NCBI GenBank assembly: GCA_039679545.1
Contig: JBDKUT010000062.1
Coordinates: 1-41,402 of the forward strand
Direction of reading: 5' to 3'
Length of the DNA: 41,402 nt
DNA from: Thermotogota bacterium
Lineage (GTDB): Bacteria; Bipolaricaulota; Bipolaricaulia; UBA7950; UBA9294
Position numbers and translations under genes: made by a program. Below the pieces are notes generated by a model. The model was not told the DNA's origin and did not search any database. It worked only from the letters and a program-made list of their open reading frames with translations. This document shows positions 1 through 26,568 of this stretch, piece by piece (position 1 is the stretch's first letter; every line of letters starts with the position of its first letter).

Positions 1-630
1 ATCTACCACCAGCGTCGCGCCAAGGTGCAGGCGCTGAAGGATGCGACGAAGATCCTCGCCAAGACCGGACTCCCCGACGCGGAGGAGAAGTCGAGGAACT
101 ATCCTCACGAGCTGTCCGGAGGAATGCGGCAGCGAGCGATGATCGCCATGTCGCTCACCTGCGAGCCGGACCTGTTGATCGCGGACGAGCCCACGACGAA
201 CCTCGACGTGACGATTGGGCGCCAGATCCTCGACCTCGTCAAGGACCTGCAGCGCGAGTTCGGAGCCAGCGTCCTGTGGATCACGCACGACATGGCGGTC
301 GTGGCTCAGATGTGCGACCGCGTCGGGGTGATGTACGCGGGGACCATCGTCGAGAAGACCGACGTGAGAACGCTGTTCCGAAGCGCCAAGCACCCCTACA
401 CGGAACGGTTGCTCCGCGCCATCCCTTCTGCGGTGAAGTCGGCCGACAAGCTGGAGGAAATCCCGGGCTCCGTTCCGCAGCTGATCCATCCGCCCGCAGG
501 GTGTCGGTTCCATCCGCGCTGCGATCACGTGATGGAGATCTGCAGCCGCGTGAAGCCGCTGGAACTAGAAGTCGAGCCGGGGCACATGGTGGCGTGCCAC
601 CTGTTCGGTGGGGAAAGGGAAGCGACATGA
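1..630 (+). CDS. Oligopeptide/dipeptide ABC transporter ATP-binding protein (OppD/DppD-like), 5'-truncated by window edge
   Basis: Frame is open from base 1. Contains YPHELSGGMRQR signature, LLIADEPTT Walker B, ITHD switch, HPYT and the C-terminal oligoHPY GCRFHPRC motif. Confidence 0.93.
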   Translation: MYHQRRAKVQALKDATKILAKTGLPDAEEKSRNYPHELSGGMRQRAMIAMSLTCEPDLLIADEPTTNLDVTIGRQILDLVKDLQREFGASVLWITHDMAVVAQMCDRVGVMYAGTIVEKTDVRTLFRSAKHPYTERLLRAIPSAVKSADKLEEIPGSVPQLIHPPAGCRFHPRCDHVMEICSRVKPLELEVEPGHMVACHLFGGEREAT

Positions 631-1592
631 CGACCGCGCTGTTTGAGTGTCGGAACCTGACGAAGTTCTTCCCGATCAAGAACCTGTTCCGCGAGACGGG
701 GCGGGTCCACGCGGTGGAGGACGTCAACCTGACGATCCCCGAGGGGGGTACCGTCGGCCTGGTGGGCGAGAGCGGTTGCGGGAAGACAACGCTGGCGCGG
801 ACCATCCTGTTGTTGATTGAGCCGACGTCGGGTCAGATCCTCTTCCGCGGCGAGGACATGGCTTCGCGCTCGAAACGAGACCTGCGGCAGTTCCGCCGCG
901 AGACGGCGATCGTATTCCAGGACCCGTACTCTTCCCTCGATCCGCGCATGCTGATTGCGGATGTCGTCGGCGAGCCGCTCGTGATTCACAAAGTGGCGTT
1001 CGGGGAAGACCGCGACGATGTCGTGCTGTCGCTCTTGGAGCGGGTCGGGCTGAAGGCCGACCACATGTACCGCTACCCGCATGAGTTCAGCGGAGGCCAG
1101 AGGCAACGGCTGGCGATCGCCCGTGCGCTGGCGGCGGACCCGAAGTTCATCCTGCTCGATGAGGCGACGTCGGCGCTCGACGTTTCGGTTCAGGCCAAGA
1201 TCTTGAACATGCTGAACGGCCTCAAGGCCGACCTGCGGCTGACGTACATGTTCATCTCCCACGATTTGAACGTCGTGCGCCACCTGAGCGACCACATCGG
1301 GGTGATGTACCTCGGGCGGATGGTTGAATACGGCACGCGGGCGCAGGTGTTCGACAGTCCGACTCACCCGTACACGCGTGGACTTCTCGCCGCGGCGCCG
1401 AGCTTGGATCCGAACGATCGGGATCGCCCGCGGGAAGTTGTGCTGCAGGGCGAGGTGCCCAGTGCCGTCGAGCCGCCGTCGGGCTGCCGTTTTCACCCGC
1501 GGTGTCCCAACCGAAAGCCGGACTGCGACCGCGTGCGCCCTGAGCTGGTGGACATCGGTGACGGCCACCTGGTAGCCTGTCTTCCAGGATGA
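627..1592 (+). CDS. Oligopeptide/dipeptide ABC transporter ATP-binding protein (OppF/DppF-like)
   Basis: ATG at 627 overlaps the upstream stop (ATGA). Contains GESGCGKT, FSGGQRQR, LLDE, ISHD and GCRFHPRC. Confidence 0.94.
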   Translation: MTTALFECRNLTKFFPIKNLFRETGRVHAVEDVNLTIPEGGTVGLVGESGCGKTTLARTILLLIEPTSGQILFRGEDMASRSKRDLRQFRRETAIVFQDPYSSLDPRMLIADVVGEPLVIHKVAFGEDRDDVVLSLLERVGLKADHMYRYPHEFSGGQRQRLAIARALAADPKFILLDEATSALDVSVQAKILNMLNGLKADLRLTYMFISHDLNVVRHLSDHIGVMYLGRMVEYGTRAQVFDSPTHPYTRGLLAAAPSLDPNDRDRPREVVLQGEVPSAVEPPSGCRFHPRCPNRKPDCDRVRPELVDIGDGHLVACLPG

Positions 1593-1783
1593 AGATCGGC
1601 AGGCGGCGGACGGAAAGGATGGATCTCGCTCGGGGCACGGACGACTCCGGCGCAGAGCGCAAGCCACCGGAGCTATCGCGCAAGGACATCCTGGCGGTGA
1701 TGATCGCGATGTTGCAGCTCTTCCTCCCGTTGATCGTCGGCCTGGTCATCGTCGGCGCCATCGTGGCGCTGATCCTTCGCTGA
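1589..1783 (+). CDS. Small single-pass/hairpin membrane protein, hypothetical (alternative start 1619)
   Basis: ATGA overlap with the preceding ABC gene. Strongly hydrophobic C-terminus (ILAVMIAMLQLFLPLIVGLVIVGAIVALILR). Fills the gap before the peptidase. Confidence 0.6.
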   Translation: MKIGRRRTERMDLARGTDDSGAERKPPELSRKDILAVMIAMLQLFLPLIVGLVIVGAIVALILR

Positions 1784-1816
1784 GCGCGCCAAGGCGAATC
1801 CGAAGAAGGAGATGAC

Positions 1817-2998
1817 GTGGACCCGGCCCTTGTCGCACGGAAGTCACATCAAGCCTGTGGGATCCTTAAAGAACTCGGCATGGATTGCTGGCTCGTCTGG
1901 GTCCGCGAAACGATGCAGATACGCGACCCTAGCCTCGATCTCGTCCTCGGAAGCGACGTGATCGCGCAGACCGCCCTCCTCTTCACGCAAGAGGGAGAGC
2001 GCATCGCCATCGCCCAGGAGCACGACGCGGCGGGTTTCCCCGACGGCCTGTTCGATCGTACGATCCCGTACCGGACGGGAATCGCCGACCCGCTTCGGCG
2101 CGAGCTGTCGCGCATCGACCCTCAGCAGATCGCTCTCAACTACAGCGTGGACAACGACGCGGCCGACGGGTTGACGGTTGGGATGTTCGAGCTGCTCCGC
2201 CAGATTCTGGGCGGCACCGACTACCCTCGCCGCTTTGTCTCGGCAGGTCCGGTTGTGGAGCGCCTGCGTGGCCGGAAGCTCCCGGAGGAAGTCGAGCGCA
2301 TCCGCGCCGCCATCTCCATCACGGAGCGCATCTTCAACGATCTGCGGGGGTTCCTCCGAGTCGGCCAGATGGAACGGGAGATCGCAGAGTACGTGCGTGT
2401 CCGAATGCGCGAACTCGGCGTGGGTCCGTCCTGGGACCCGTCGTACTGCCCCGCCGTCGACGCAGGACCGGACAAAGAGTTCGGCCACGCAGGCCCGACA
2501 ACTCTTCGGACGAAGGCCGGGCACCTACTTCACTTCGACTTCGGTGTGAAAGCAGATGGGTATTGCTCCGACCTGCAGCGGATGTACTTCTTCGGCCGTC
2601 GCTCTGAGATCCCGGCCGAGATCCAACACACCTTCATTACGGTACGCGGCGCCATCGACGCAGCGGCCGCGTTCCTCCGTCCCGGTCGGGTCGGTCACGA
2701 GGTGGACGCGGTGGCTCGTGCCCACATCACCGGCGGCGGCTACGAAGAATACGCACACGGGCTCGGCCATCAGATCGGGCGCTTCGCACACGACGGGGGA
2801 ATGCGACTTGCGCCGACGTGGGAACTGTTCGGCCGTCGACCCTTCGGAATCGTTGAACAAGGCAACATCTTCACCATCGAACCAAACGCTATGACACAGA
2901 ATTATGGCCGGGTCAGCCTTGAGGAAGACGTCGTCGTCACCGCCGAGGGGTGCACTTTCCTCTCGCATCCCCAGAGAGAGCTCTTCTGCATCGAGTGA
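1817..2998 (+). CDS. M24 family metallopeptidase (Xaa-Pro aminopeptidase/prolidase-like)
   Basis: RBS AAGGAGA before GTG. Pita-bread-fold metal ligands visible: HFDFG, YCSD, HGLGHQIG, TIEP, EED. Confidence 0.9.
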   Translation: MDPALVARKSHQACGILKELGMDCWLVWVRETMQIRDPSLDLVLGSDVIAQTALLFTQEGERIAIAQEHDAAGFPDGLFDRTIPYRTGIADPLRRELSRIDPQQIALNYSVDNDAADGLTVGMFELLRQILGGTDYPRRFVSAGPVVERLRGRKLPEEVERIRAAISITERIFNDLRGFLRVGQMEREIAEYVRVRMRELGVGPSWDPSYCPAVDAGPDKEFGHAGPTTLRTKAGHLLHFDFGVKADGYCSDLQRMYFFGRRSEIPAEIQHTFITVRGAIDAAAAFLRPGRVGHEVDAVARAHITGGGYEEYAHGLGHQIGRFAHDGGMRLAPTWELFGRRPFGIVEQGNIFTIEPNAMTQNYGRVSLEEDVVVTAEGCTFLSHPQRELFCIE

Positions 2999-3003
2999 CG
3001 TCG

Positions 3004-4095
3004 CTACGCGCAGACGATCGGCTTGTCCTTCGGAAACCGGCTCAGAATCTCCGGCCCCCCCTCGGCAATCAGAACCACGTCTTCGATCCGCACGCCGCCC
3101 TTTCCGAGAAGGTAGACGCCCGGCTCGGCGGTCACCACCATCCCGGGCGCGTAGGCGTCAATCGCTTGCGGACCCGAGGATGCCGGCAGCTCGTGGACCT
3201 CTAGACCAACCCCATGGCTGAGGCCGTGCGTGTACTCCGCGCCGTAGCCGGCTTGCTCGATGACTTCCCGAGCGGCTCGATCGGCATCGGAGCCCGAATA
3301 GCCCGGACGAAGCGCGTCGATGCCGGCGCGGTTGGCTTCGAGGACGACCTCGTAGACCCGACGCATCTGCGCCTCCGGCTCGCCCATGAAGACCGCGCGG
3401 CTGATATCGCTGCAGTAGCCGTCGACACGCGCCCCGATGTCGAACAAGAGGACGTCTCCTCCCCTGATCTCGCGGTGATCCGGACGGTGGTGAGGAAGCG
3501 CGCTCGCGGCACCGCTCGCAACGACCAGTTCGAACGCCACCCCTTCGGCCCCCAGGTGGCGCATCGCGAACTCGAGCTCCAGAGCGAGTTCGCTCTCCGT
3601 GACTCCCGGAGCGACGCTGCGAAGCACGCCGCTGAACGCTGTTTCCGTCACATCCGTTGCCCGTCGGATCGCGGCCACCTCGTCCTGGTCCTTGATCTGG
3701 CGGAGCTCGGCCACCGGGTCGTCGAACACCTCAAGGGCGGTCTTCATCTGGGTCTCGAGGGCACGCGCGGTGTGGAAGCCAAGACGACGCGACGCGACGC
3801 CCACTCGCCTGCACTTGCAGTCATCGACGGCCTCCGCAATCGCCTTCGGGTAGTTCCAGTCGAGGATTCGCCATTCGAGATCGGGGGCGTCCTGCTGTGC
3901 TTGGCCGATGTTGGTGCGCGACGCGAGGGGAATCGTCGCTTTGCGCGTGATCACAAGCGCCCCGCACCCGGGGTACCCGGTCAGATACCGCATCGATGGG
4001 CCATCAGGATCTGTGCCCTCCAGATTCACGACGAGGAAGGCGTCGACGTCCAGGTTTTCCAGAACGCGAAACCTACGATGCGCGTAGTCCGTCAT
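3004..4095 (-). CDS. M24 family Xaa-Pro dipeptidase (PepQ/YqhT-like)
   Basis: MRYLTG N-terminal motif, LRQIKD, ALPHH, LFDIG, YCSD, HGLSHGVGLEVHE, TAEPG, GGVRIED. Start taken at MTDYAH (4095). Confidence 0.92.
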   Translation of the reverse strand: MTDYAHRRFRVLENLDVDAFLVVNLEGTDPDGPSMRYLTGYPGCGALVITRKATIPLASRTNIGQAQQDAPDLEWRILDWNYPKAIAEAVDDCKCRRVGVASRRLGFHTARALETQMKTALEVFDDPVAELRQIKDQDEVAAIRRATDVTETAFSGVLRSVAPGVTESELALELEFAMRHLGAEGVAFELVVASGAASALPHHRPDHREIRGGDVLLFDIGARVDGYCSDISRAVFMGEPEAQMRRVYEVVLEANRAGIDALRPGYSGSDADRAAREVIEQAGYGAEYTHGLSHGVGLEVHELPASSGPQAIDAYAPGMVVTAEPGVYLLGKGGVRIEDVVLIAEGGPEILSRFPKDKPIVCA

Positions 4096-5167
4096 CTTCA
4101 GTTCCTTTCTGTTCTTGAACAAGCCGACGTGGATCCGCCTCACCAGCGGGAGGCTGGGGGGTGGAGCCAAGGAGAAATCCGTCCTTGAGTGGGTCGTCGG
4201 GGTCGATGACGAACTCGTGATGTCCGGTCACGAATGCACGGCCCGAGATCTCAGGAACGACCGCCGCGCAGTCGCCGACCTTCGTCTCCTCGACGATACG
4301 TCCGGTGAGCGTGGTGCCGATCAGGCTCTCGTGGACAAACGGCTCCCCCACCGCGATCTCGTCCCGCGCGTAGAGAATTGCGAGGCGCGCTGCGGTTCCG
4401 GTCCCGCACGCGGACCGATCGATCGCGCCTGGCGGGATCACGACGGCGTTGCGACCGGAGACGCCGGGGTTCTCAGACGAAGCGGTGAATTGTACATGAG
4501 TGATTTCGTCGACCCACGCCAACTCAGGGTGTCGAACGCGAATCCGGCCCCGCGCCGCGTCCCGAAGAGCGAGGCCGACGCGGACGAGATCCGCGGCAGC
4601 TTCGGGAACGAGTCGGAGGCCGAGGCGTCCCGCCTCGACCGAGGCGTAGACGTTGCCGCCGTACGCGACGTCGACGCCCACCCTCCCGAAGCCGGGGATG
4701 TCAACCGGCGTGTCGAGCGTGAAGACGAAGGCAGGGACCGAGCGGAATGAGACTCGCACGGCTCTTCCCCGGTCGATGAGAACTTGAGCGGCAACGAGTC
4801 CGCCGGGCGTATCGAGGACGACCTCGGTCTCTCCCGAGCCACGGACGAAACCAGCCTCCACAAGGGCCGTACAGCAGCCGATCGTATCGTGCCCGCACAT
4901 CGGCAAGTACCCGCCGACCTCGACGAAGATGACGCCGAACTGGGAGCCGCGCTGGCACGGCTCCGTCAGCACGACCGCGGACATGACGCTGTTCCCGCGC
5001 GGCTCGAACGTGAGGGCCGTGCGGATCCAGTCCATGTGCGTGCGAAGGTACAGAGCACGCGCGCTCATGGTGCCGCCGGGGATGGAAGGCAGCCCGGACA
5101 GGATCGTGCGCGTCGGCTCGCCACCGGTATGAGTGTCGATCGTTACGACGCGCTGTCTAGGAATCAT
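4073..5167 (-). CDS. Proline racemase family, Cys/Cys type; probable 4-hydroxyproline 2-epimerase
   Basis: DTHTGGEPTR, EPRG, MCGH and DRSACGTG give two catalytic Cys. Ser rather than Phe in the RGNSVMS segment favours a hydroxyproline epimerase over a proline racemase (inference). RBS GGGAGA precedes ATG 5167. Confidence 0.85.
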   Translation of the reverse strand: MIPRQRVVTIDTHTGGEPTRTILSGLPSIPGGTMSARALYLRTHMDWIRTALTFEPRGNSVMSAVVLTEPCQRGSQFGVIFVEVGGYLPMCGHDTIGCCTALVEAGFVRGSGETEVVLDTPGGLVAAQVLIDRGRAVRVSFRSVPAFVFTLDTPVDIPGFGRVGVDVAYGGNVYASVEAGRLGLRLVPEAAADLVRVGLALRDAARGRIRVRHPELAWVDEITHVQFTASSENPGVSGRNAVVIPPGAIDRSACGTGTAARLAILYARDEIAVGEPFVHESLIGTTLTGRIVEETKVGDCAAVVPEISGRAFVTGHHEFVIDPDDPLKDGFLLGSTPQPPAGEADPRRLVQEQKGTEDDGLRAS

Positions 5168-5201
5168 AGTCTCCCTTTCGGTACCCCCTAGCGCTTGCGA
5201 G

Positions 5202-5230
5202 ACGGTAGGAGCGACGCTTCGTCTTGTCAA
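5202..5230 (-). promoter_or_regulatory. Sigma70-type promoter for the epimerase-prolidase pair
   Basis: Minus strand TTGACA (5225-5230), 17-bp spacer, TACCGT (5202-5207). Confidence 0.6.
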
Positions 5231-5285: not shown

Positions 5286-5293
5286 GCATGAAC

Positions 5294-5896
5294 ATGGAAT
5301 CCGTCGGGCAGCTTATTCGCGACCTCCGCGCCGAGAAGGGATGGACGCTGAAGGAACTCGCTTCGAAGTGCGCGCTTTCAACTAGCTTTCTTTCGCAGGT
5401 CGAGCGCGGACTCTCCTCGGTGTCGATCACGTCTCTTCACGTTATTTGCCAGGCTCTCGGCATGACGCTGGGCGAGTTCTTCCGCCAACTCGGAGACGGT
5501 GCTGGGCAGCCCGAGCCTGGAGGGCAGACGCTTGAGGTTATGAAGGCGAAGGACCAGCGGGCGATCAACCTGTCGGAGGCGTCCATCAAGTATCGTTTCC
5601 TCAGCCGTGAGTTTCCCGGTCGGCAGTTCGAAATCATGCTCGGGGAAATCCCCTCGGGCTACTTCTACCCGCCGTTCCCCCACGAGGGGGAGGAGTTCGG
5701 CTACGTCCTCGAAGGCCAACTCCGACTGACGATCGGCGACGAAACCTACACCCTCGGCCCCGGAGACAGCTACCACTTTGCGGCGTCGACGCCTCACGGA
5801 TACCAGGCGGAGGGCGACGCGGCCGTGCGGATCCTGTGGGTTCAGACCTTGAAGTACTTCCAGACGCGGGACGGGATTCCGGCCGCGTCGACCTAG
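5294..5896 (+). CDS. XRE-family HTH + cupin transcriptional regulator (PuuR/SutR-like)
   Basis: HTH TLKELASKCALSTSFLSQVERG and cupin HEGEEFGYVLEG...GDSYHF...PH. ATG 5294 is preferred over 5288 because 5288 lies only 2 nt past the predicted -10. Confidence 0.9.
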   Translation: MESVGQLIRDLRAEKGWTLKELASKCALSTSFLSQVERGLSSVSITSLHVICQALGMTLGEFFRQLGDGAGQPEPGGQTLEVMKAKDQRAINLSEASIKYRFLSREFPGRQFEIMLGEIPSGYFYPPFPHEGEEFGYVLEGQLRLTIGDETYTLGPGDSYHFAASTPHGYQAEGDAAVRILWVQTLKYFQTRDGIPAAST

Positions 5897-5963
5897 GAGC
5901 CCGTCCAACCGGCGGTACGTCTTGCGAAAGAGGTCATCCCAGTGCATGCCCAGGGGTGGCGTG

Positions 5964-7022
5964 ATGAGCACTCGGCGAGCCCGGAGAGAGGAAGTCGCGC
6001 CAAAGTGGCACCATCGCAAGGGGTGGCGATCGTTTCAGACGGTCGACCTCCACACGGCGGGTGAGCCGCTGCGCATCGCGATCGAGGGGTTTCCGGAGCT
6101 CCGCGGCGCGACGATGCTCGAACGCCGAGAGGATGCGCGAGCGCGCTGCGACGAGCTGCGGCGGATTCTTCTGTGGGAGCCACGCGGGCACGCTGACATG
6201 TACGGGTGTCTCGTCACTCCTCCTGCGAGCAACGACGCGAATTTCGGCGTCCTCTTCATGCACAACGAGGGGTGGAGCACGATGTGCGGTCACGGCGTGA
6301 TCGCCGTGACCACGGCGGCCGTCGAACTCGGATGGGTCGCCGCACGAGAGCCTGAGACAACGGTGCGGATCGACGCCCCGGCGGGACGGATCACAGCCCT
6401 GGCGCGTCTCGAGACCGGAAACGTTCGCGCGGTCCGGTTCCGCAACGTTCCGTCGTTCGTCCTCGCCCTCGATCAGACGGTCGACGTCCCGGGGGTCGGG
6501 CGCATTCGATACGACCTCGCGTTCGGTGGCGCATTCTACGCCTACGTCGACGCCGCGGACGTAGGACTCCGGTGCGTCCCAGGGGAGGTTGACGCCTTGA
6601 TCGCCGCAGGCCGTGCCATCAAGCACGCCGTCGTGGCACAACGGGCGATTCCGCATCCCCTCGACGCCGCCCTCGGCTTCCTCTACGGCGTGATCTTCAT
6701 CGCGCCGCCACTCTCGAACGAAGCAGACAGCCGAAACGTCTGTGTCTTTGCGGACGGCGAGGTCGACCGTAGTCCGACGGGCACGGGGGTGAGTGGGCGG
6801 ATGGCGCTGCACTACGCGCGCGGTGAGGTGGGGCTCGGACAGCCGCTCGTGATGGAGAGCATTCTCGGAACTCGGTTCACGGGCCGCGTTGTTGAGGAGA
6901 CGACGTGCGGAGAGTCCGCCGCGGTGATCCCCGAGGTCGAAGGCTCGGCGCACATCACCGGCTACCACACGTTCGTCGTCGACCCCGAGGATCCCCTCGG
7001 GGAGGGGTTCTTCCTCCGCTGA
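5964..7022 (+). CDS. Proline racemase family, Cys/Thr type; probable trans-3-hydroxy-L-proline dehydratase
   Basis: DLHTAGEPLR, EPRGHADMYG, MCGH and DRSPTGTG, with Thr in place of the second Cys. This is the established signature of t3LHyp dehydratases such as L3HYPDH. Confidence 0.85.
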   Translation: MSTRRARREEVAPKWHHRKGWRSFQTVDLHTAGEPLRIAIEGFPELRGATMLERREDARARCDELRRILLWEPRGHADMYGCLVTPPASNDANFGVLFMHNEGWSTMCGHGVIAVTTAAVELGWVAAREPETTVRIDAPAGRITALARLETGNVRAVRFRNVPSFVLALDQTVDVPGVGRIRYDLAFGGAFYAYVDAADVGLRCVPGEVDALIAAGRAIKHAVVAQRAIPHPLDAALGFLYGVIFIAPPLSNEADSRNVCVFADGEVDRSPTGTGVSGRMALHYARGEVGLGQPLVMESILGTRFTGRVVEETTCGESAAVIPEVEGSAHITGYHTFVVDPEDPLGEGFFLR

Positions 7023-10315: not shown

Positions 10316-10330
10316 TACAGTGCCACTGCA
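10316..10330. promoter_or_regulatory. Palindromic operator copy 1 (TACAGTG-C-CACTGCA) abutting the activase start codon
   Basis: One-mismatch copy of the perfect palindrome at 10428-10442. Confidence 0.6.
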
Positions 10331-10381
10331 CACTCCGACGCGTCCATCTCCTTTGACTCGTGCTCGTTGATCCACGAAGAG

Positions 10382-10410
10382 ACGATACGCCGAGGCCCGG
10401 ACGGATGCAA
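10382..10410 (-). promoter_or_regulatory. Sigma70-type promoter for activase-hypD
   Basis: Minus strand TTGCAT (10405-10410), 17-bp spacer, TATCGT (10382-10387), lying between two copies of a palindrome. Confidence 0.55.
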
Positions 10411-10427
10411 GGGCACACGTCAGCTCT

Positions 10428-10442
10428 TGCAGTGCCACTGCA
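10428..10442. promoter_or_regulatory. Palindromic operator copy 2 (TGCAGTG-C-CACTGCA)
   Basis: Perfect 7-1-7 inverted repeat upstream of the predicted -35. Confidence 0.62.
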
Positions 10443-10467
10443 CGCCCATCGACCTCGACCAACCTGT

Positions 10468-18279: not shown

Positions 18280-19920
18280 CTATCTGCCCATCGCCTCTTT
18301 TGCCTTCAGGTTGATCCGCCACATGTGCATGTTCTCGCTCGGACCAATGAAGACGATGGTCTCCTGCGGTCCGACGATGTACGCCTGGCGGGCGAACAGG
18401 GTCGGCTTCTGATACGGATAGAACGCGAGCGCGTGGGCCGCAATCAACGGCTGCACCTGCTCGTAGAGCGCAAGGCGCTTGGCGGCGTCAGGCTCCGCCC
18501 GCGTCGCATCCAGGATCCGGATGATCTCGGGGTCGTCAAAGAACCAGTGAGCCTCGAAGATCCATCCGAGCCCCTTCGGCGCAAACATCGCGTACGTGTA
18601 GTAGTCGTGCGTCGGCGCGGACTGCGGGCCGAACAGGAAGATCGTCATGTTCGGCGTCGTCTCGGGTGACGAGCACTCCGCGGAGTACTGCGGCCACGGG
18701 GGCCCGGTAACCTCGACCGTCACGCCGAGCTGCGCCATGTCGGCCTGCAGCTGAAGCCCGACCTCTTCCTCGAATCCCAATCCTCCGCAGAAGTGGAAGG
18801 CCACCTTGACGTTCTTCAGGTCCTTCGCGTACTTGGAGAGCGCCAGCTCCTGGCGCGCCCGCTCGAGATTCTGCTTGCGCGGCTGCGGATCGATGGGCAC
18901 GTATCCTGGCATGTTCGGCAGCAGGATTCCGGTCTCACCGTTTCCGAACGCCATCCACGGGCCGACGATGCTCTCGTAGTCAAACGCGTACAGGATCGCC
19001 TTGCGGAAGTGCTCGTCGTCGGTCGGCGCCACCTTCGAGTTCATCCACACCGTCACGTTCTGCGCCCACACGCTCGAAAACGCGAGCGTGAGGTCCTTCT
19101 GGATCTCCTGAAGTTGCGGGAGAGTCCAGCCGCCGTTGATTTCGAGGTCGAGTCCGCCGCTCTTCAGAAGCGTCATGAGCGTCGTGTAGTCGGTCTCCAT
19201 GATGAAGACCAGCTTCTCAATCGGCACTTCGTCCGGGCCCCAACCCTCGTTCGACCAACCTTCAAAGTAGCCCGCGAAGCGCACCGCGTCGAGACGCTGC
19301 CCCGGGATGTGGCTTGTCATCTGATACGGGCCGGTCCCGGCGTCGTGCGTCGTCAGCCAGTCCTCGCCGTAGTCCCCGAACTCGCCGTAGTTCCCGGCTT
19401 TCTTGTTCGCAAGCACGACGGCCTTCTCCACCGGGAAGAACAGCACGAGAACCTCGGGGAAGATGGCGCTCGGTTTGTCGAGCACGAAGTCGACGGTGTA
19501 GCGATCCACCGCGACCGCATTGACCTTTCCCAACGGCCCCGAGTTGCCGCGCCCCATGGCGATGAACCGCGCCATGGAGAATGCAACGTCCTCGGCGGTC
19601 ATCTCGTTGCCGGAGTGGAACTTCACTCCCTGTCGAAGCACGAATCGCCAGTGGGTGAAGTCTCCCCCGACCGGCTCCCAGCTCGTCGCCAGGTGAGCCC
19701 GAACTCCGCCCTCCGGAGCGGGGTAGACGAGCGGGCTGTACAGGTTGTACATCGTCTCCGTGTCATACCAGTCCGACGCGGTGGCCGGGTCCGCCGTGAT
19801 CACGGGGTACCCGTTGATGACGGCCACGTTGTCCGTGGCACCCAATCCGATGAAGCCCATCAGGCCGACGACAAGCGCGGAGAGCGCCGCCGCCACACCT
19901 AGAAGCCTCGGAATTCTCAC
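18280..19920 (-). CDS. Family 5 extracellular solute-binding protein (OppA/DppA-like)
   Basis: Sec signal without a lipobox, LATSWE, LRQGVKFHSG..TAEDVAFS, GTGPY and RKAILYAFD. RBS GAGGTG before GTG. Confidence 0.93.
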   Translation of the reverse strand: MRIPRLLGVAAALSALVVGLMGFIGLGATDNVAVINGYPVITADPATASDWYDTETMYNLYSPLVYPAPEGGVRAHLATSWEPVGGDFTHWRFVLRQGVKFHSGNEMTAEDVAFSMARFIAMGRGNSGPLGKVNAVAVDRYTVDFVLDKPSAIFPEVLVLFFPVEKAVVLANKKAGNYGEFGDYGEDWLTTHDAGTGPYQMTSHIPGQRLDAVRFAGYFEGWSNEGWGPDEVPIEKLVFIMETDYTTLMTLLKSGGLDLEINGGWTLPQLQEIQKDLTLAFSSVWAQNVTVWMNSKVAPTDDEHFRKAILYAFDYESIVGPWMAFGNGETGILLPNMPGYVPIDPQPRKQNLERARQELALSKYAKDLKNVKVAFHFCGGLGFEEEVGLQLQADMAQLGVTVEVTGPPWPQYSAECSSPETTPNMTIFLFGPQSAPTHDYYTYAMFAPKGLGWIFEAHWFFDDPEIIRILDATRAEPDAAKRLALYEQVQPLIAAHALAFYPYQKPTLFARQAYIVGPQETIVFIGPSENMHMWRINLKAKEAMGR

Positions 19921-20045: not shown

Positions 20046-21158
20046 TCAATCCACAATCAAGAGCTCGTGAGTCACGGTCGTCATCGGCATGCCGCTCGAC
20101 TCCGAAACCACGACGATGTCCTCGATGCGGACCCCGAAGCGCTCCGGAAAGTACACACCGGGTTCCACGGAGAAAGCCATCCCGGGCTCGAGCGGGATCT
20201 TGTTTCCCGCGACGATGTACGGGGGCTCGTGGATGTCGAGGCCGATGCCGTGTCCCGTGCGGTGGATGAAGCGATCGCCGAACCCTCGTGCGGTCAGGAA
20301 GTCCCGAGCCACACGGTCGATTTCCTCGGCCGGTACCCCCGGTCGCACGGCGTCTACGGCCCGCTGCTGCGCCTCGCGAACCGCGTCGAAGGCCGTTCGA
20401 ACCTCGCGCGATGGATCGCCGCACACGACGGTCCGGCTAATGTCCGAGCGATAACCGCCCGTGCGGCACCCGTAGTCGAGGATGACCGCGTCGCCGCGCG
20501 CAATCCGGCGGTTTCCCGCCCGGTAGTGAGGCAGCGCCGACGCCGGCCCCGAAGCGACCAGCGGGTTGAACGCTGTGTTGTCGGCTCCGGCGCTCCGCAT
20601 GGCGTCCACCAGGACCGCGGCGATCTCGAGCTCCGTGCGCCCGATGAACGGCGTCTCGACGACCCGCCGAAAGGCCTCGTCGGCGATCGAGCCGGCTCGA
20701 CGTAGGAGCTCCACTTCCTGGACGTCCTTTCGCATGCGGAGCTTCGCGAGAACCGGTGTCGCACTTGAGAACGCGCGCTTGGGCAGCGCCTCCTGGCACG
20801 CGAGGAGGAACTCCGACCAAAGGGACTCCTCAACCAAAACCGTTCCCGGTGGCCTCGCCACGTCCTTGACCGCCGCCGCAAGAGCGTCGTGCGGGCCCTC
20901 GTGATCGGCCCACACGAAGTGCTTCGCGAACCCGGTGTCGACCCGCACTTGCTCCGCGTAGAGCTCAGGAACCACGAAGGCCGGCTCGCCCTCCCGCGGA
21001 ACCAGAACCACCAAGAGGCGTTCGCCCGGGTCGTCGGTAAACCCCGTCAGGTAACGCATCGACGAGGACAGACCGACGATCAAGAGACCCGCGAAACTCC
21101 TCCCCAACTCACGCTGCACGGCGGATAACCGCTCGCCGTACGGCTTTACGCTCGTCAT
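20046..21158 (-). CDS. M24 family Xaa-Pro dipeptidase (prolidase-like)
   Basis: MRYLTGF, LRMRKD, ALPHY, ILDYG, YRSD, HRTGHGIGLDIHE, SVEPG, GVRIED. Confidence 0.93.
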   Translation of the reverse strand: MTSVKPYGERLSAVQRELGRSFAGLLIVGLSSSMRYLTGFTDDPGERLLVVLVPREGEPAFVVPELYAEQVRVDTGFAKHFVWADHEGPHDALAAAVKDVARPPGTVLVEESLWSEFLLACQEALPKRAFSSATPVLAKLRMRKDVQEVELLRRAGSIADEAFRRVVETPFIGRTELEIAAVLVDAMRSAGADNTAFNPLVASGPASALPHYRAGNRRIARGDAVILDYGCRTGGYRSDISRTVVCGDPSREVRTAFDAVREAQQRAVDAVRPGVPAEEIDRVARDFLTARGFGDRFIHRTGHGIGLDIHEPPYIVAGNKIPLEPGMAFSVEPGVYFPERFGVRIEDIVVVSESSGMPMTTVTHELLIVD

Positions 21159-21643
21159 TTCGTTGACTTACCTCCTCGGTCCGCCTGACGCGGAGCGTCA
21201 CTCGCTGGAATCCGCGTCAGACGAATCGTCTCGATGCCGTGTTGCCAGATCCGAACGCCGATCTCGGCGATCTTCGGCCACTGGTCCTGCGAGACGCGCG
21301 CGAAGACATTGACCGACAGGAACCCGTGATGGTCGCGGACGACCTCGGCGCCGTAGTATACGGAGAGCGCCTCGTTCGCCTCTTCACCCTTCTCCCACTC
21401 GCGCCAGTAGATCATGTCCCCGATGTTCACCGTCGACGTGTCGTTCTCGCGCGGGGGGCCGGAACGGCCGAGCGCCACCGGAAAGTAGACCTCGCGCCCG
21501 CACCACCGCGTGTGGTACGCCGTCGTTTCGAGCGGAAGTGCGGCAAGCACCGCGGAGACCGTCCGGGGAGCGAGCTCGGAGAGAACGTCAGCAATGAGCA
21601 CGCCGCCGCGCTCGAACTCGAGCCGAATGCACTCGCCCGTCAC
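21155..21643 (-). CDS. Cyclophilin-like fold protein (DUF3830/DUF369-like)
   Basis: APRTV..VLAALPL....HTRWCGREVYF...PREN.T....GD..YW pattern recalled from this family. Translationally coupled on both sides. Confidence 0.7.
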   Translation of the reverse strand: MTGECIRLEFERGGVLIADVLSELAPRTVSAVLAALPLETTAYHTRWCGREVYFPVALGRSGPPRENDTSTVNIGDMIYWREWEKGEEANEALSVYYGAEVVRDHHGFLSVNVFARVSQDQWPKIAEIGVRIWQHGIETIRLTRIPASDAPRQADRGGKSTK

Positions 21644-23400
21644 CGCTTGTCACCCACCTTGCCAAGCTTCTTGCGCAGGGTCGTCGTGGCGGTTCGATCG
21701 ACGGCGAGTGTGCCTGGGTCCAAGGACACTCCGTAGTCGGAGCGCGCCGCTTCGAGGGACACGTAGCCGTTGGCCACATCGTCGGCGACTGCGGCCGGGT
21801 CGCGGTCAAGCGGATTCCCATACCCGCCGCCGCCGCCGCCCTGGAAGCTGACGACCTCGCCCTTCGCGAGCGGGAGGTTGGAGATCTTCCTCCACCGCTC
21901 CTCTCGCCCGTCGCGGCGATGGACGACCGTGATGTTCGTCTTTCCCGGCTTCCCGCCGAAGACGCCCCACGGAGGCGTGTACAGCACGCGATCGGCGGTG
22001 ACCGTCAGCCCGGCGTCGGAGCCTAGGCGATACTCGCGATGGACCCCGAGCCCGCCGCGGAACTTGCCCGCTCCGCCGGAATCCTTGATCAGCTCGAACC
22101 GCTCAACCTGCCACGGATAGCGGATCTCGACGACCTCGGCCGGGACGTTGTAGGTGTCGCCGAGCGTCATCGAGAACAGCGCCGCCTCTCCGTCCTCGTT
22201 CGGTTTTCCGCCGTATCCGCCGGCGTCCGCCTCCGCACAGACGTAGTACTTCTTCGACTTCGGGTCGGTGCCGTAGATGAAGTTGGCCATCGAATCCCCG
22301 AAATGCCCTCCGCGGACCTGGTCCGGGATCGCGGGAGCGAGGGCTTTGAGGAACAGGTCGGGGATCGTCGACGACGGCGTTGGCCACATCGCGCACGCCG
22401 CCGGGAACTTCGGCTTCAGGAAGCTTCCGTCCGGAATCACGATCCGCAGGGCGCGGAAGAACCCCTCATTGCTCGGAAGGTGAGGACTGGTCACGATCTT
22501 GAACGCGTAGCGGGTCGCCGAGATCGTCGACGGCTCGGGCGTATTCATCGGACCGCGGCTCTGCGGACCCGTCCCGGTGAAGTCGGCGATCATCTCGTCG
22601 TCGTCCACCGTGATCGTGAGCTTCAAGAGGAGCTTCTCGTCAAGCGGAGCATCGTCGTTCCCGTCGCCGTCGAGGACGGCCTCCGCGGCGTACACTCCGT
22701 TCGGGATGCGCCGCACAGCGGCGCGGGCGAGCCGCTCGCCCTGGGCCAGGATCTCGGCGAGGGCCCCCGTCGTGGTCTTCACGCCGAAGCGGTCGATCAC
22801 CTCGGAGAAGCGCTGGCTTCCCTTGCGCACCGCGGCCACCATGGCTCGAATGTCGCCGAGCACGGCGTCGGGTACCCGCGTGTTCGCGCGGATCAGGCGG
22901 AAGACGTCGTCGTTGTTCTTCCCTTCAATCAGCAGTTTGACGGGGGGAAGGCGGAAGCCCTCCTGGAAAACCTCGACGGTGTCGCTGTACCACCCGCCCG
23001 GGTAGATGCCCCCCATGTCGACGGTGTGGCCTCGGAATGCCGCCCACCCGAGGATCTCCCCGTCGTGGAACGCAGGACAGAGTGCGACCAGATCGGGGCA
23101 GTGCGTGCCCCCGCCGCTGTACGGGTCGTTGCACAGGATGACGTCTCCGGGGTGCAGGTTGGCGCGGCCGATCGTCTCGTAGGTCGACTGTACGGCGTAA
23201 CCCAAGTTCGCGAGGAAGATGGGGAGTCCCGGCGTCTCGGCGATCAGGTTCGCGTCGCCGTCGAGGATTCCGCAGCTGAAGTCGACGACCTCGTAAAGGA
23301 TCGGGGAGTACGCGGCGTGTTCGACGGTTCGCCGGATGTCGCGGCTCGCCGCGATCAGCCGGTTACGAACGACCTCCAGGGTGATCGGATCGATCTTCAT
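21640..23400 (-). CDS. Hydantoinase B/oxoprolinase family protein (copy 1)
   Basis: IDPITLEVVRNRL, SPILYEVVDFS, NDPYSGGGTHCPD, GHTVDMGG, FQEG, GAGKFRGGLG, GGGGYGNP. Confidence 0.94.
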   Translation of the reverse strand: MKIDPITLEVVRNRLIAASRDIRRTVEHAAYSPILYEVVDFSCGILDGDANLIAETPGLPIFLANLGYAVQSTYETIGRANLHPGDVILCNDPYSGGGTHCPDLVALCPAFHDGEILGWAAFRGHTVDMGGIYPGGWYSDTVEVFQEGFRLPPVKLLIEGKNNDDVFRLIRANTRVPDAVLGDIRAMVAAVRKGSQRFSEVIDRFGVKTTTGALAEILAQGERLARAAVRRIPNGVYAAEAVLDGDGNDDAPLDEKLLLKLTITVDDDEMIADFTGTGPQSRGPMNTPEPSTISATRYAFKIVTSPHLPSNEGFFRALRIVIPDGSFLKPKFPAACAMWPTPSSTIPDLFLKALAPAIPDQVRGGHFGDSMANFIYGTDPKSKKYYVCAEADAGGYGGKPNEDGEAALFSMTLGDTYNVPAEVVEIRYPWQVERFELIKDSGGAGKFRGGLGVHREYRLGSDAGLTVTADRVLYTPPWGVFGGKPGKTNITVVHRRDGREERWRKISNLPLAKGEVVSFQGGGGGGYGNPLDRDPAAVADDVANGYVSLEAARSDYGVSLDPGTLAVDRTATTTLRKKLGKVGDKR

Positions 23401-25442
23401 CGCTCCTCCTCGTGCACCGAGATGATCAAGGTTCCGTACTCATCGACGCGGCAGCTTTGCTTCGCTTCGACCACCGCGGTTGCCGTGACTTCTTCGATCA
23501 GCGCTGGACCGTCGACGACGTTCCCGGCAAGCAGCCGCTCGCGGCGGTAGATCGCAAACGGCTGATGCCGGCCGCTTCCGATGTACACGGGGCGCTCCCC
23601 CATGCGGGCATCGGCGGGCGGCGTCTTCGAGCCTTTCTGAATCTTCTCCAGTACCGGCTTGTTGACACTCCCGATCCCGATCACCTTGAGCGAGACGATC
23701 TCCTTCTCCTCCTCGGGGGCGTTGTGGCCGTACACTCGGAGGTGCGTCTCGTCGAACGCCGCGGCCAGGCCGGGCTTCGCCGTCTCGGTGACGGGGTACG
23801 TGGCCCCAACGGCGAGCGTGTGTTCCTGGCCGACGTAGCGCAGATCGAGTTGATACGACATCGCGATCTGCTTCTTGTCGACGTTCTCCTTCCGGAACAC
23901 CTCACGAATCTTCTCCTCGAGCGAAGCGAGGGTGGCGTTGAGCTCCCCGATGTCGGCCGAGCGCAATGGAGCGATGTAGGTCTGGCCAAGGTCGTGGCGC
24001 AGGTCAGCCATGAGCATGCCCCACGCGGAAAAGACGCCGGAGTAGGGCGGGACGATCACGGTTGGGATGTGCAGATCTTTGGCGATCGCGGCGGCGTGGA
24101 TCGGGCCTGCTCCGCCGAACGCGACCATCGCGAACTCCCGCGGGTCGTAGCCTCGCTTCACGGTCATCGACTGGAGAAGGCCGGACATGTTCGTGTTGAC
24201 GATCTTGACGATTCCGAGCGCCGCCTCGTCGACGGAGAGCTCGAAGTGATCGGCGACCTTCTTGATCGCGTCATGCGCGTGGGCCTTCGAGATTTTCATC
24301 TCCCCGCCGAGGAAGTAGTCGGGATCCAGAATCCCGAGCTGCAGGTTGGCATCCGTGACCGTCGGCTCGGTGCCTCCTCGCAGGTAACACGCCGGTCCCG
24401 GCGCGGCGCCCGCACTCTGCGGGCCGACGTGCATGGCGCCCGCTTCGTCGATCCAGGCGATCGACCCTCCTCCCGCTCCGATCTCGCGCAGGTCCACGAC
24501 GGGGAGCAGGATCGGCCGTCCCTCCACGACGTACTGCTCGGCCGTCTCGGGAAGCCCTCCGGTGATGATGGACGTCTTCGCCGTGGTCCCGCCCATGTCG
24601 TACGAGATCACGTTGGCGAACCCGGCGAACTTCGCAAGCTGGGCGGCCCCGATAGCCCCGCCTGCCGGACCGGACTCGACCATGGCGATCGGCATGTCAC
24701 GGGCCACCGACGCCGCCATCACGCCGCCGTTCGACTGCATGATCTGAAGGATCTGGGTGAAGCCGCGCTTCCGAAGATCCTCCTCGAGCTGGTTCAGGTA
24801 CAGCCGAACGACCGGCATCACGTAGGCGTTCTGCGTGGCCGTGCTCGTTCGCTCGAACTCGTAGTAGCGCCGAGTGATCAGGTGGGACAGGGACACCGTG
24901 ACCCCGGGAAGCCGCCGGCCGAGGAACTCGCCGATTGCCGTCTCGTGCTCCGGGTTGGCGTAGGCGTTGAGCAGACACACGGCCACGGACTCCACCCTCT
25001 CTTGGACGAGGATGTCAATGAGGCTGTCCAGCTCCTCCTCGTGGAGCGGCACCACGACGCGGCCTTCCGCGTCGATTCGCTCGCGCACTTCGAGCCGAAG
25101 GCGTCGCGGCACGAGCGGGCGAGGCTTGGCGTAGAGCGCGTCGTACATCTCCGTCCGGTTCGAGCGGCCGATCTCAAGGACATCGCGGAAGCCTTGGGTA
25201 GTGATGAGCGCCGTCTTCGCGCCCTTCCCTTCGATCAGGGCGTTGATGACGACCGTCGTGCCGTGCGACAGGAACGAGGCGTCCCGCAGAGGAACGTTCC
25301 ACTTCTCGATGCACTCGATGGTTCCGATCGCGGGATTGTGGGGCGTGGAAGAGACCTTGCTGAGCCTGACCTTCCCCGTCTTCTCGTCGAGGAGTACACC
25401 GTCGGTGAACGTCCCCCCCACGTCCGTGCTGAGCCTATACAT
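23397..25442 (-). CDS. Hydantoinase A/oxoprolinase family protein (copy 1), ATP-binding subunit
   Basis: DVGGTFTD, HGTT, EFERTST, ESGPAGG, DMGGTT, GAGGGS, PGPACY, TVTDANL, FGGAGP. Confidence 0.94.
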   Translation of the reverse strand: MYRLSTDVGGTFTDGVLLDEKTGKVRLSKVSSTPHNPAIGTIECIEKWNVPLRDASFLSHGTTVVINALIEGKGAKTALITTQGFRDVLEIGRSNRTEMYDALYAKPRPLVPRRLRLEVRERIDAEGRVVVPLHEEELDSLIDILVQERVESVAVCLLNAYANPEHETAIGEFLGRRLPGVTVSLSHLITRRYYEFERTSTATQNAYVMPVVRLYLNQLEEDLRKRGFTQILQIMQSNGGVMAASVARDMPIAMVESGPAGGAIGAAQLAKFAGFANVISYDMGGTTAKTSIITGGLPETAEQYVVEGRPILLPVVDLREIGAGGGSIAWIDEAGAMHVGPQSAGAAPGPACYLRGGTEPTVTDANLQLGILDPDYFLGGEMKISKAHAHDAIKKVADHFELSVDEAALGIVKIVNTNMSGLLQSMTVKRGYDPREFAMVAFGGAGPIHAAAIAKDLHIPTVIVPPYSGVFSAWGMLMADLRHDLGQTYIAPLRSADIGELNATLASLEEKIREVFRKENVDKKQIAMSYQLDLRYVGQEHTLAVGATYPVTETAKPGLAAAFDETHLRVYGHNAPEEEKEIVSLKVIGIGSVNKPVLEKIQKGSKTPPADARMGERPVYIGSGRHQPFAIYRRERLLAGNVVDGPALIEEVTATAVVEAKQSCRVDEYGTLIISVHEEER

Positions 25443-26511
25443 TGCTTCCTCCTGATGGTCGAGGTTTCGGATGACCGACCCCGGTCGTTCCCTGCAGAGA
25501 GTTCTCCGTAGCCGCCTGCCACACCCGCTCCGTTTCGATCGACCCGGGAGCCGATCGAGCCAGAAGCAGCTTGGCTCCGCCGTTCTGCGTCGTTGCGCAA
25601 CCTCGGTGACTGAAAGCCGGGAGGTGGTAGCAGTCGCCGGATCTGAGGGCGTAGTCCTCTTCTCCGATTGTCAGTTGAATGCGCCCCTCAAGGACGAATC
25701 CGAACTCCTCCCCTTCATACGCTCCCGGCTCCTGTGAAAAGCCAGATGGGATCTCCGCCACGAGCACTTCCAGCGAGCCCGCGGGGAGCGCGCCGCTCAA
25801 GAAGCGGTACGTAACCGTGTTGTCTGAAAGCTTCACGTGATCCGCGCCGTCGTCGCTTCCCAAGAGGGGAACCCGCTTTTCCTGGGCTCCCGGAAGGTCC
25901 GGAAGTTCGGCGCCCAGAAGCGCGATCGCCTTGGCATACCGCGCCGTCTGCACCCACAGTACCTTCGCCCCGGACTCGGCCGCCGCACACCGGTGGGACG
26001 TCGCCGCAAGCAGGTGGTAGCTGTCCCCGATGCCCAGGTGGTGCTCCTCCTCACCTATCGTCAGGTCGATGGTCCCGTCGAGGATGTAGCCGAACTCTTC
26101 CCCCTCGTGGACGTGCGACTCGTGGGAACTCCCTTGCGCCATCTCGCCAATCAGCACTTCGAAGCGACGCCCGGGGAACTCGGCGCTGAGGAATCGGTAC
26201 TTGATCGACGTGTCCGACAAGCTGACGTACGAGCGGTTGTCTCCCTTCGTGATCGCCGAGGGACGCGGATCGGCGAGGAACGCCTTCCCGGGACCGTTCG
26301 ACATCACGAGCATGTCGGCCAACGCAACATCCAACGCTTCGCAGATAGCGCGGAGGGAAGGAATGGAGAACGACGACAACCCTCGCTCGATCTGGGAAAG
26401 GAAGCCGACCGAAAGACCGCATTGTTCCGAGAGCGAGCGCAGGGTCAACCCGCGTTGACGCCGTAGGTATCTGAGTTTGCGGCCAACCTCCTGGAGGCGT
26501 TCAGTCTCCAT
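25435..26511 (-). CDS. XRE-family HTH regulator with two tandem cupin domains
   Basis: HTH TLRSLSEQCGLSVGFLSQIERG, then two repeats of YRFLS...EGEEFG.(I/V)L.G...LTIGEE...GD.YHL. Confidence 0.88.
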   Translation of the reverse strand: METERLQEVGRKLRYLRRQRGLTLRSLSEQCGLSVGFLSQIERGLSSFSIPSLRAICEALDVALADMLVMSNGPGKAFLADPRPSAITKGDNRSYVSLSDTSIKYRFLSAEFPGRRFEVLIGEMAQGSSHESHVHEGEEFGYILDGTIDLTIGEEEHHLGIGDSYHLLAATSHRCAAAESGAKVLWVQTARYAKAIALLGAELPDLPGAQEKRVPLLGSDDGADHVKLSDNTVTYRFLSGALPAGSLEVLVAEIPSGFSQEPGAYEGEEFGFVLEGRIQLTIGEEDYALRSGDCYHLPAFSHRGCATTQNGGAKLLLARSAPGSIETERVWQAATENSLQGTTGVGHPKPRPSGGSNV

Positions 26512-26517
26512 GAAGCC

Positions 26518-26546
26518 ATTCTAGACAGAGTGTGAACGCCAGTCAA
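26518..26546 (-). promoter_or_regulatory. Sigma70-type promoter of the regulator/hydantoinase/Opp operon (leaderless)
   Basis: Minus strand TTGACT (26541-26546), 17-bp spacer, TAGAAT (26518-26523), 6 nt before the ATG at 26511. Confidence 0.7.
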
Positions 26547-26551
26547 GCGGT

Positions 26552-26568
26552 AGTGAACATCGTTCACT
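26552..26568. promoter_or_regulatory. Palindromic operator AGTGAAC-ATC-GTTCACT
   Basis: Perfect 7-3-7 inverted repeat just upstream of the -35. A related GTGAAC half-site lies at 26532-26537 in the spacer. Confidence 0.6.

Follow-up and report, generated by a model that had tools for sequence, protein, structure and literature searches.

The enzymes that free hydroxyproline (Hyp) for anaerobes bearing the glycyl radical enzyme HypD are named as an open problem in a passage of PMC6219649, and the same question is raised by contig JBDKUT010000062.1 of assembly GCA_039679545.1 (contig C62 of genome G000), the whole 41,402-nucleotide stretch of which is referred to here as the window. In the window, HypD lies in a block (1-26511) that also encodes two pairs of ATP-dependent lactamase-family subunits (HyuA1/HyuB1 and HyuA2/HyuB2), peptide ABC importers (Opp), M24 metallopeptidases, and two proline-racemase-family enzymes. 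What do the genes upstream of Hyp catabolism deliver, and from which substrate? The answer developed here is that a conserved core, HyuA2-HyuB2-DUF3830-M24-OppABCDF, forms an apparently undescribed front end to Hyp catabolism, built from known families; its product is very likely Hyp, and its substrate is tentatively read as a cyclic Xaa-Hyp or Xaa-Pro dipeptide (diketopiperazine). An earlier prediction made from the window (the original prediction) had described an island for scavenging collagen- or extensin-derived peptides.

Identification of a conserved module linked to Hyp catabolism

Pfam and NCBIfam scans located all of the gene families within 1-26511, each with an open frame, and confirmed the inventory of the original prediction: three M24 enzymes, a Cys/Cys and a Cys/Thr racemase-family enzyme, HypD and its activase, two HyuA/HyuB pairs, and two regulators. 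That inventory had overlooked a 64-aa open reading frame (ORF) and DUF3830, the latter a member of the conserved core. The core lies in a run of 14 minus-strand genes, from Reg2 (26511) through HypD (7027):

7027-9390, minus: HypD glycyl radical enzyme; 13 of 13 positions checked against C. difficile kept, the CVE motif among them
9395-10315, minus: HypD-activating radical-SAM enzyme; CxxxCxxC motif, ferredoxin insert
10468-12270, minus: HyuB1, ATP-dependent lactamase-family beta subunit
12267-14315, minus: HyuA1, ATP-binding alpha subunit
14312-15292, minus: OppF2
15289-16290, minus: OppD2
16290-17186, minus: OppC permease
17190-18209, minus: OppB permease
18280-19920, minus: OppA2, family-5 solute-binding protein
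20046-21158, minus: M24c, Creatinase_N plus M24, predicted Xaa-Pro/Xaa-Hyp dipeptidase of the conserved core
21155-21643, minus: DUF3830, cyclophilin-like protein; sole copy in the genome
21640-23400, minus: HyuB2, lactamase-family beta subunit and module marker; intact Asp40-His100-Asp103-His125 metal site
23397-25442, minus: HyuA2, ATP-binding alpha subunit
25435-26511, minus: Reg2, first gene of the run; XRE regulator, two cupin domains

Eight of the 13 junctions in this run overlap and two further gaps are only 3-4 nt; stop/start overlaps couple HyuA2 through M24c.

A gene-neighborhood survey of HypD homologs, suggested with the original prediction, found hydantoinase, M24, and racemase genes co-occurring with them. 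In 39 fetched stretches, covering 38 of the 58 other HypD places above cut-off and with genes called by a codon model built for this analysis, HyuA2-HyuB2-DUF3830-M24c-OppA recurred beside HypD in varying orders; complete HyuB2 copies were 82-94% identical, and OppA2 was 77-95% identical in 11 of the 12 other HypD loci having one. Linkage was kept despite rearranged order across four families (f1, f3, f5, and f10), and the block was syntenic in three relatives (G140, G142, and G143). Among the 184 phylum genomes, with counting limited to those holding HypD or a racemase-family gene, such a gene lay no more than 25 kb from 17 of 31 HyuB2-type and 19 of 41 HyuB1-type genes, as opposed to one of 51 other HyuBs, the single case being a third HyuB inside the cluster of G146. 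The HypD set for this count took in 16 below-cut-off pieces judged to be contig-edge or broken HypD; excluded were three HyuB2 rows (fragments or tandem second copies), 52 weaker unlisted HyuB matches, and 20 weak racemase-family rows (E >1e-10). Fragmented assemblies depress all three rates, and Fisher tests on them overstate the association because kin genomes are non-independent, a point that weighs against our reading.

HypD was present in 27 of the 31 HyuB2 genomes. The other four (G143, G141, G124, and G125; 79-90% complete) gave no match to a PFL-like glycyl radical enzyme, and all four have a second, Ser-type Cys/Cys enzyme together with FAD/FeS, DAO-family, and DHDPS-family genes, the set that constitutes the oxidative Hyp route as presented in passages of PMC4113996. 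In G143, these oxidative-route genes and an AFOR gene lie between HyuB1 and the Cys/Thr gene, exactly where the window has HypD and its activase; both flanks align to the window, and in G141 the two ends of a G143-like arrangement are split over two contigs. The oxidative-route genes of G143 (L155, contig C74, 5767-13893) end in an AFOR-family oxidoreductase, not an NAD-dependent aldehyde dehydrogenase. The module is kept upstream while the Hyp route is swapped; no other observation argues as strongly that it delivers Hyp, and Hyp is thus very likely its product. HypD itself does not need the module, since just 14 of 40 stretches have a Hyu pair.

These data bear on one alternative, namely that linear collagen or extensin peptides are scavenged and the Hyu pairs are bystanders acting on free 5-oxoproline or an unrelated lactam. 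It can draw on the presence together of two Opp sets, three M24 enzymes, and enzymes for both 4-Hyp and 3-Hyp, on the synteny in G140, G142, and G143, and on the XRE-cupin regulator, found in 19 of the 39 fetched HypD neighborhoods as against a Hyu pair in 14 of 40 stretches. Bystander status, however, leaves unexplained the difference in co-location (17/31 vs 1/51), the high identity of HyuB2 across phyla, the coupling of HyuA2 to M24c, and the retention of the module upon HypD replacement; in addition, no U32 collagenase was found in the search for that family (a search for M9 collagenase had controls that matched nowhere). Such a reading omits the most conserved part of the cluster, because an ATP-dependent lactam hydrolase is not required for ordinary linear peptides from collagen, and we regard it as improbable. 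The original prediction is supported in its link among lactamase, transporter, M24, and Hyp catabolism, which is real and conserved.

Distribution of the module beyond the phylum

HyuB2 orthologs sharing 69-97% identity were recovered from 52 genome loci, including records labeled Spirochaetota, Chloroflexota, Aerophobetes, and Eubacteriales. Within 10 kb of these orthologs, HyuA2 occurred in 50 of the 52 loci, DUF3830 in 40, OppA in 36, M24c in 32, HypD in 12, and the racemase family in seven. Five of the 22 loci not classed as Bipolaricaulota-like (L101, L105, L120, L121, and L125) had a racemase-family neighbor and none of the 22 had HypD; two of the five carry a DapA-family gene, and racemase-flanked modules occur in records labeled Spirochaetota, Chloroflexota, and Aerophobetes. 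Of 77 metagenome loci, 41 were 12 kb or longer, and among these DUF3830 was present in 38, OppA in 36, M24c in 29, and HypD in 17, with HypD, a racemase, or AcnX in 22. A TatD-family metallohydrolase, which is not in the window block, stands beside the module in 11 of the 52 genome loci (e.g., L113:9607-10419).

Twenty stretches were selected for their HyuB1-type genes, and in many of them HyuA1B1 stands at the head of a second cluster that has an OppA of its own; a hydantoin-racemase-family gene was present in 10 and DUF917 genes plus M24 in eight, and a Phe-type proline racemase and proline-dehydrogenase-like genes were linked. These findings suggest that HyuA1B1 serves Pro and HyuA2B2 serves Hyp. 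The second cluster, as conserved in L137-L143 and L146, comprises HyuA1B1, a nitroreductase, DUF6092, Opp, a hydantoin-racemase-family gene, a HyuA-like gene, two DUF917 genes, M24, a Phe-type proline racemase, and proline-dehydrogenase-like genes.

Lactamase pairs and their predicted substrate

Both window pairs have Hydantoinase_A and Hydantoinase_B domains, ATP-site motifs, and the Asp-His-Asp-His metal site of the family. An AlphaFold model of HyuB2, built from a 147-row alignment, had a predicted local distance difference test (pLDDT) score of 96.6 and template-modeling (TM) scores of 0.90-0.91 to caprolactamase and N-methylhydantoinase, and by alignment HyuB2 retains the CapB metal tetrad (given in the available text of PMC8453981). 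The pairs differ from caprolactamase: the HyuA and HyuB proteins fall far under the CapA/CapB cut-offs NF050156/NF050157 (504-558 and 266-288 vs 1000), and the HyuB2 pocket has Trp137 at Tyr136 and Glu37 at Leu38 of CapB. M24b and M24c have the M24 metal ligands and Creatinase_N, M24a the ligands only, and all three are far under the NCBIfam PepQ/PepP cut-offs (best 215 vs 630), so that their earlier designation as three prolidases is not established. DUF3830, present once in G000, travels with HyuB2 and has 24 invariant residues across 38 orthologs. The ESM Atlas returned known Pfam families only for DUF3830 and OppA2, no literature on DUF3830 was found in the open-access papers searched, and a predicted HyuB2-DUF3830 complex scored 0.00, which says nothing on binding either way. 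A PDB sequence search with OppA2 gave three matches (E ∼1e-16 to 1e-18), none of them a close solved relative or an informative ligand-bound one.

The combination of a peptide importer, a cyclic-amide hydrolase, and an Xaa-Pro-type peptidase upstream of Hyp catabolism would fit a ring-closed Xaa-Hyp substrate. Our tentative proposal, to which we give slightly less than even weight, is that cyclic Xaa-Hyp/Xaa-Pro dipeptides are opened to linear dipeptides, which are then cleaved by M24. In this scheme, OppABCDF would import cyclo(Xaa-Hyp) and cyclo(Xaa-Pro), HyuA2B2 and HyuA1B1 would open the diketopiperazine rings at the expense of ATP, and M24c would split the resulting linear Xaa-Hyp or Xaa-Pro. 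HypD would then dehydrate the released trans-4-hydroxy-L-proline (t4LHyp) to pyrroline-5-carboxylate (P5C), the Cys/Cys epimerase would feed cis-4-hydroxy-D-proline into the HypD step, and P5C dehydrogenase would oxidize P5C to glutamate. Ring opening through an activated lactim, the mechanism proposed for the lactamase family, requires an N-H amide, and the sole N-H amide of cyclo(Xaa-Hyp) is the bond whose cleavage gives Xaa-Hyp, the type of substrate used by M24 prolidases. Prolidase is taken to be trans-specific. DUF3830 might, speculatively, aid the cis-locked product or bind the substrate. The broader claim, that these pairs are ATP-dependent diketopiperazine hydrolases which, with OppA2, DUF3830, and M24c, constitute the first gene-defined pathway for cyclo(Xaa-Hyp/Pro) catabolism, in uncultured anaerobes of several phyla, feeding HypD or the oxidative Hyp route, with the cis-locked product handled by DUF3830 as a new accessory factor, is put forward more tentatively still.

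Parts of the literature are consistent with such a substrate: passages describe Hyp-containing diketopiperazines arising from collagen peptides (PMC6213548), such cyclic dipeptides as microbial products (PMC8533947), and diketopiperazines left uncleaved by the peptidases tested (PMC3852281), and one sentence of PMC6061476 speculates that many oxoprolinase-annotated genes are cyclic dipeptide hydrolases. Several points weigh against it. Substrate range in the lactamase family is enzyme-dependent (PMC11033972, in part), and HyuB2 shares only ∼30% identity with any solved relative. Cyclo(Pro-Hyp), which is known to come from collagen, lacks an N-H amide and is a misfit with the lactim logic. M24c is absent from 20 of the 52 HyuB2 loci, and 17 of the 22 non-Bipolaricaulota-like loci are without a racemase-family gene or HypD within 10 kb, though many loci are short.

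Other neighbors point to hydantoins, and the lactamases could, like N-methylhydantoinase, act on a Pro- or Hyp-derived cyclic amide of the hydantoin type (a bicyclic hydantoin of the prolyl or hydroxyprolyl kind, or a compound similar to creatinine) and open its ring, with M24 or a TatD-like neighbor removing the carbamoyl group. N-methylhydantoinase is the nearest solved relative, hydantoin-racemase-family genes occur in three of the 52 HyuB2 loci and 10 of the 20 HyuB1 loci, NCS1 nucleobase/allantoin-type permeases occur in four of 52, creatininase-family genes adjoin several loci, and the Hyp linkage data fit equally well. M24c, however, keeps the full metallopeptidase ligand set, none of the loci examined showed a recognized carbamoylase accompanying the module, a family-5 peptide ABC system usually serves as importer (36/52), and we know of no abundant natural hydantoin of Hyp; a hydantoin substrate is thus considered unlikely.

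A pyroglutamyl dipeptide, pGlu-Hyp or pGlu-Pro, would also require a peptide importer and also give Xaa-Hyp, the ring being opened to Glu-Hyp that M24c splits; the family includes 5-oxoprolinases, and no C15 pyroglutamyl peptidase was found in G000 (the control matched in 4 of 14). Both window HyuBs, however, lack the NIKERRD segment, which we take to be a mark of 5-oxoprolinases and which the third HyuB paralog of the genome has. Diketopiperazines are taken to epimerize readily, and two differing lactamase pairs plus a C2-epimerase are explained less simply by pGlu peptides than by diketopiperazines, making the pGlu alternative quite unlikely.

HypD, its activase, and the fate of P5C

The window glycyl radical enzyme is a predicted t4LHyp dehydratase, HypD, and the original prediction was right on this assignment: the protein scored 1174.6 bits on NCBIfam NF043068 (cut-off 1100), and its best match was a full-length one to C. 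difficile HypD (6VXC; 991 bits, with the next glycyl radical enzyme at ∼500). In the numbering of the 6VXC alignment, it keeps 13 of 13 checked positions (F152, H160, W277, D278, S334, D339, F340, C434, E436, Y450, L643, T645, and G765), of which F152, W277, and L643 are presumed sites. Eleven checked residues are named in, or follow from, the available text and mutant Table 2 of PMC7077986. The activase gene adjoins HypD with a 4-nt gap; its product is above the TIGR02494 cut-off and scored 350 on NF043069, where 425 is needed. HypD was above cut-off in 58 of the 184 phylum genomes and is thus common in the phylum.

In the clade around the window HypD, Thr mostly takes the place of Glu436, an essential residue of C. 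difficile HypD; CVT occurs in 94 of the 120 nearest relatives and in 15 of 39 sequences from the phylum. In a quick, midpoint-rooted tree without a characterized outgroup, the window HypD was a CVE-bearing branch nested in a strongly supported, mostly-CVT clade; the tree needs two changes, which would fit loss and then regain in the window branch. A second glycyl radical enzyme of G000 (C153:22284-26202; 905 aa), which is accompanied by a small ORF of 82 aa and by an activase, has a layout that appears to resemble that of arylacetate decarboxylase.

A Stickland-type HypD-ProC route was rejected, as ProC had no matches in G000 (93.6% complete; the control matched in 12 of 14); a search of G000 for PrdA/GrdE-type reductases had no matches, but its control matched nowhere either. 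The genome has a single aldehyde-dehydrogenase match, a P5C dehydrogenase that passes the TIGR01236 cut-off. Because no ProC was found and this enzyme is present, P5C is likely oxidized to glutamate by it, a fate already stated, together with the rarity of neighboring proC, in passages of PMC6219649. A third XRE-cupin paralog, on contig C21, heads a FAD/FeS and DAO-family pair that is 62-74% identical to pairs beside the racemase genes of relatives and is a putative proline dehydrogenase.

The route from P5C also bears on whether the lactamases act downstream, on an oxidized ring such as 5-oxoproline or 4-hydroxy-5-oxoproline derived from P5C or Hyp. AFOR-family oxidoreductase genes inside or beside some loci would fit such a role; P5C dehydrogenase already yields glutamate, however, and the lactamase genes are coupled to importer and peptidase and are retained when the downstream route is swapped, so that we hold a downstream role to be very improbable.

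Racemase-family enzymes and the 3-Hyp branch

By alignment, the Cys/Cys enzyme has Ser at the position of Phe in proline racemase 7PB3, in agreement with the C2-epimerase chemistry originally predicted; Ser or Val in place of Phe102 marks hydroxyproline epimerase according to a passage of PMC1964878. Although it fell below equivalog cut-offs (314 vs 376 for NF010578, and 351 vs 556 for proline racemase), the pattern argues strongly for a predicted hydroxyproline 2-epimerase converting cis-4-hydroxy-D-proline to the HypD substrate. The Cys/Thr enzyme matched 6R76 and human trans-3-hydroxy-L-proline (t3LHyp) dehydratase best and scored 421 on NF045511 (cut-off 540); the Cys/Thr pair rule for t3LHyp dehydratase (PMC4113996, in part) supports its assignment to the t3LHyp dehydratase type.

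In G140, G142, and G143, an OCD/mu-crystallin gene of ∼1 kb lies between Reg1 and the Cys/Thr gene; it is absent at window 5896-5964, and no OCD gene of the type of pyrroline-2-carboxylate (Pyr2C) reductase was found at the locus or elsewhere in G000. Assembly artefact was rejected as the cause, as contigs from two sequencing runs of one study (X1 and X2) span the junction without a gap. One MLD2-family gene is on contig C71, among genes read by sequence as malic enzyme and fumarase, and unless it substitutes, the 3-Hyp branch is probably incomplete in G000. The 3-Hyp coverage proposed earlier is supported for a t3LHyp dehydratase-type enzyme and is probably wanting at the reductase step. In two relatives (L038:6223-8676 and L046:12227-15238), aconitase X, which was not found in G000, lies beside the Cys/Thr enzyme near HypD.

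Genome context and organization of the block

Genome G000 is 2.35 Mb, 93.6% complete, and 3.6% contaminated, and the closest named relatives of the window proteins are labeled Candidatus Bipolaricaulota. DNA sequencing runs carrying the sequence came from wastewater, sediment, and landfill in three studies, one of them possibly the source, and no RNA run was listed among the carriers. The block consists of four gene runs with three orientation changes: OppD1-OppF1-64-aa ORF-M24a (plus, 1-2998), the Cys/Cys enzyme and M24b (minus, 3004-5167), Reg1 and the Cys/Thr enzyme (plus, 5288-7022), and the 14-gene run above. Features outside the latter are:

1-630, plus: OppD1, ABC ATPase, 5′-truncated; remainder of the left Opp set on contig C67
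627-1592, plus: OppF1, ABC ATPase
1589-1783, plus: 64-aa ORF, C-terminal half hydrophobic; no Pfam match, present in G140 and G142
1817-2998, plus: M24a, divergent M24 metallopeptidase; metal-ligand motifs present, adjoins the block only in the genus
3004-4095, minus: M24b, Creatinase_N plus M24, Xaa-Pro peptidase-like
4073-5167, minus: Cys/Cys proline-racemase-family enzyme, predicted hydroxyproline 2-epimerase; Ser at the Phe102-equivalent site
5288-5896, plus: Reg1, XRE-cupin regulator
5964-7022, plus: Cys/Thr proline-racemase-family enzyme; Cys/Thr pair
26496-26546, minus: promoter-like site, 10/12 match, directly before Reg2; a 13-nt inverted repeat overlaps

The block is a native Bipolaricaulota cluster, not an island as first described: its GC content (0.649) matches that of the genome (0.650), and the same composition and the synteny in G140, G142, and G143 led us to reject horizontal acquisition. 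Among the loci examined, M24a and the left Opp set adjoin the block only within the genus, and the 26-kb size is partly due to aggregation at the genus level. Of the two Opp sets originally listed, the right one is complete; the left one is represented in the window by just a 5′-cut OppD and OppF, while contig C67 ends with OppA/B/C and the missing start of OppD. The end of C67 overlaps the first 215 nt of the window (201/215 identical, 14 mismatches), and contigs from runs X1 and X2, which extend beyond the window start, also show 14 differences to the window; these 215 nt may be of sister-strain origin.

Reg1 and Reg2 are 46% identical. A promoter scan of the window gave two sites against 1.8 expected, and a terminator scan was likewise not above chance. 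A 17-nt direct repeat with copies 112 nt apart (10315-10445), before and at the start of the activase gene, may be an operator or a duplication scar. Elsewhere in the window are a 177-aa ORF between pyrE and dCTP deaminase (32314-32847; no Pfam match at 1e-5), which we presume to be ThyX-like, a 1648-aa ORF with a beta-helix, three PKD domains, and a caspase-like C14 domain (34492-39438), and consecutive 2′-5′ RNA ligase-like, archease, and RtcB genes (38926-41401).

Comparison with known systems and significance

Descriptions already exist of HypD, of the two racemase chemistries, and of the lactamase family (glycyl radical enzyme review PMC13450708); no paper describing the combined cluster was found in the open-access literature, which takes in neither supplements nor papers under subscription such as the primary ones on HplG and HpyG/HpzG. 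The architecture, which the original prediction held may be undescribed, thus appears to be undescribed as a combination within that literature, whereas adjacent 4-hydroxyproline epimerase and t3LHyp dehydratase genes already appear in PMC4113996 (Zhao et al., 2014). The window shares this adjacency with the clusters of that study, the OCD partner is found in three sister genomes, and the DAAO/DHDPS route replaces HypD in G143; in contrast to those clusters, the window adds a glycyl radical enzyme and two lactamase pairs and is without the OCD gene, and the word hydantoinase occurs 0 times in the PMC4113996 text available.

The full-length match of HypD, its 13 of 13 positions, and its adjacent activase resemble C. 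difficile HypD/HypD-AE (6VXC/6VXE, NF043068); unlike the clostridial system, G000 has no detected proC, its P5C dehydrogenase is elsewhere, and its HypD is a CVE branch in a mostly-CVT clade. Two subunits, ATP-site motifs, metal site, and fold are shared with caprolactamase CapAB (6YRA), N-methylhydantoinase (7HK5/9H03), and 5-oxoprolinase OplAB, but identity to these is 30-32% and the window pairs are coupled to a peptide ABC importer, M24, DUF3830, and Hyp catabolism. The proposed order of ring opening, dipeptidase, and amino acids follows a scheme in PMC3852281 (Perzborn et al., 2013); activity there was in whole cells or extracts, none of the strains tested degraded cyclo(L-Pro-L-Tyr), and ATP is not mentioned in the portion of the text available.

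Proline-containing cyclic dipeptides are described, in passages of PMC3852281 and PMC8533947, as common and peptidase-resistant, with degraders little known. The cluster names specific proteins that can be assayed with simple small substrates and provides a first lead for DUF3830. If the substrate were a hydantoin or a pGlu peptide, the module would still represent an unassigned lactamase specificity tied to Hyp catabolism; if the diketopiperazine reading is true, it would open to testing a way in which cyclic dipeptides are degraded, a process of which little is known.

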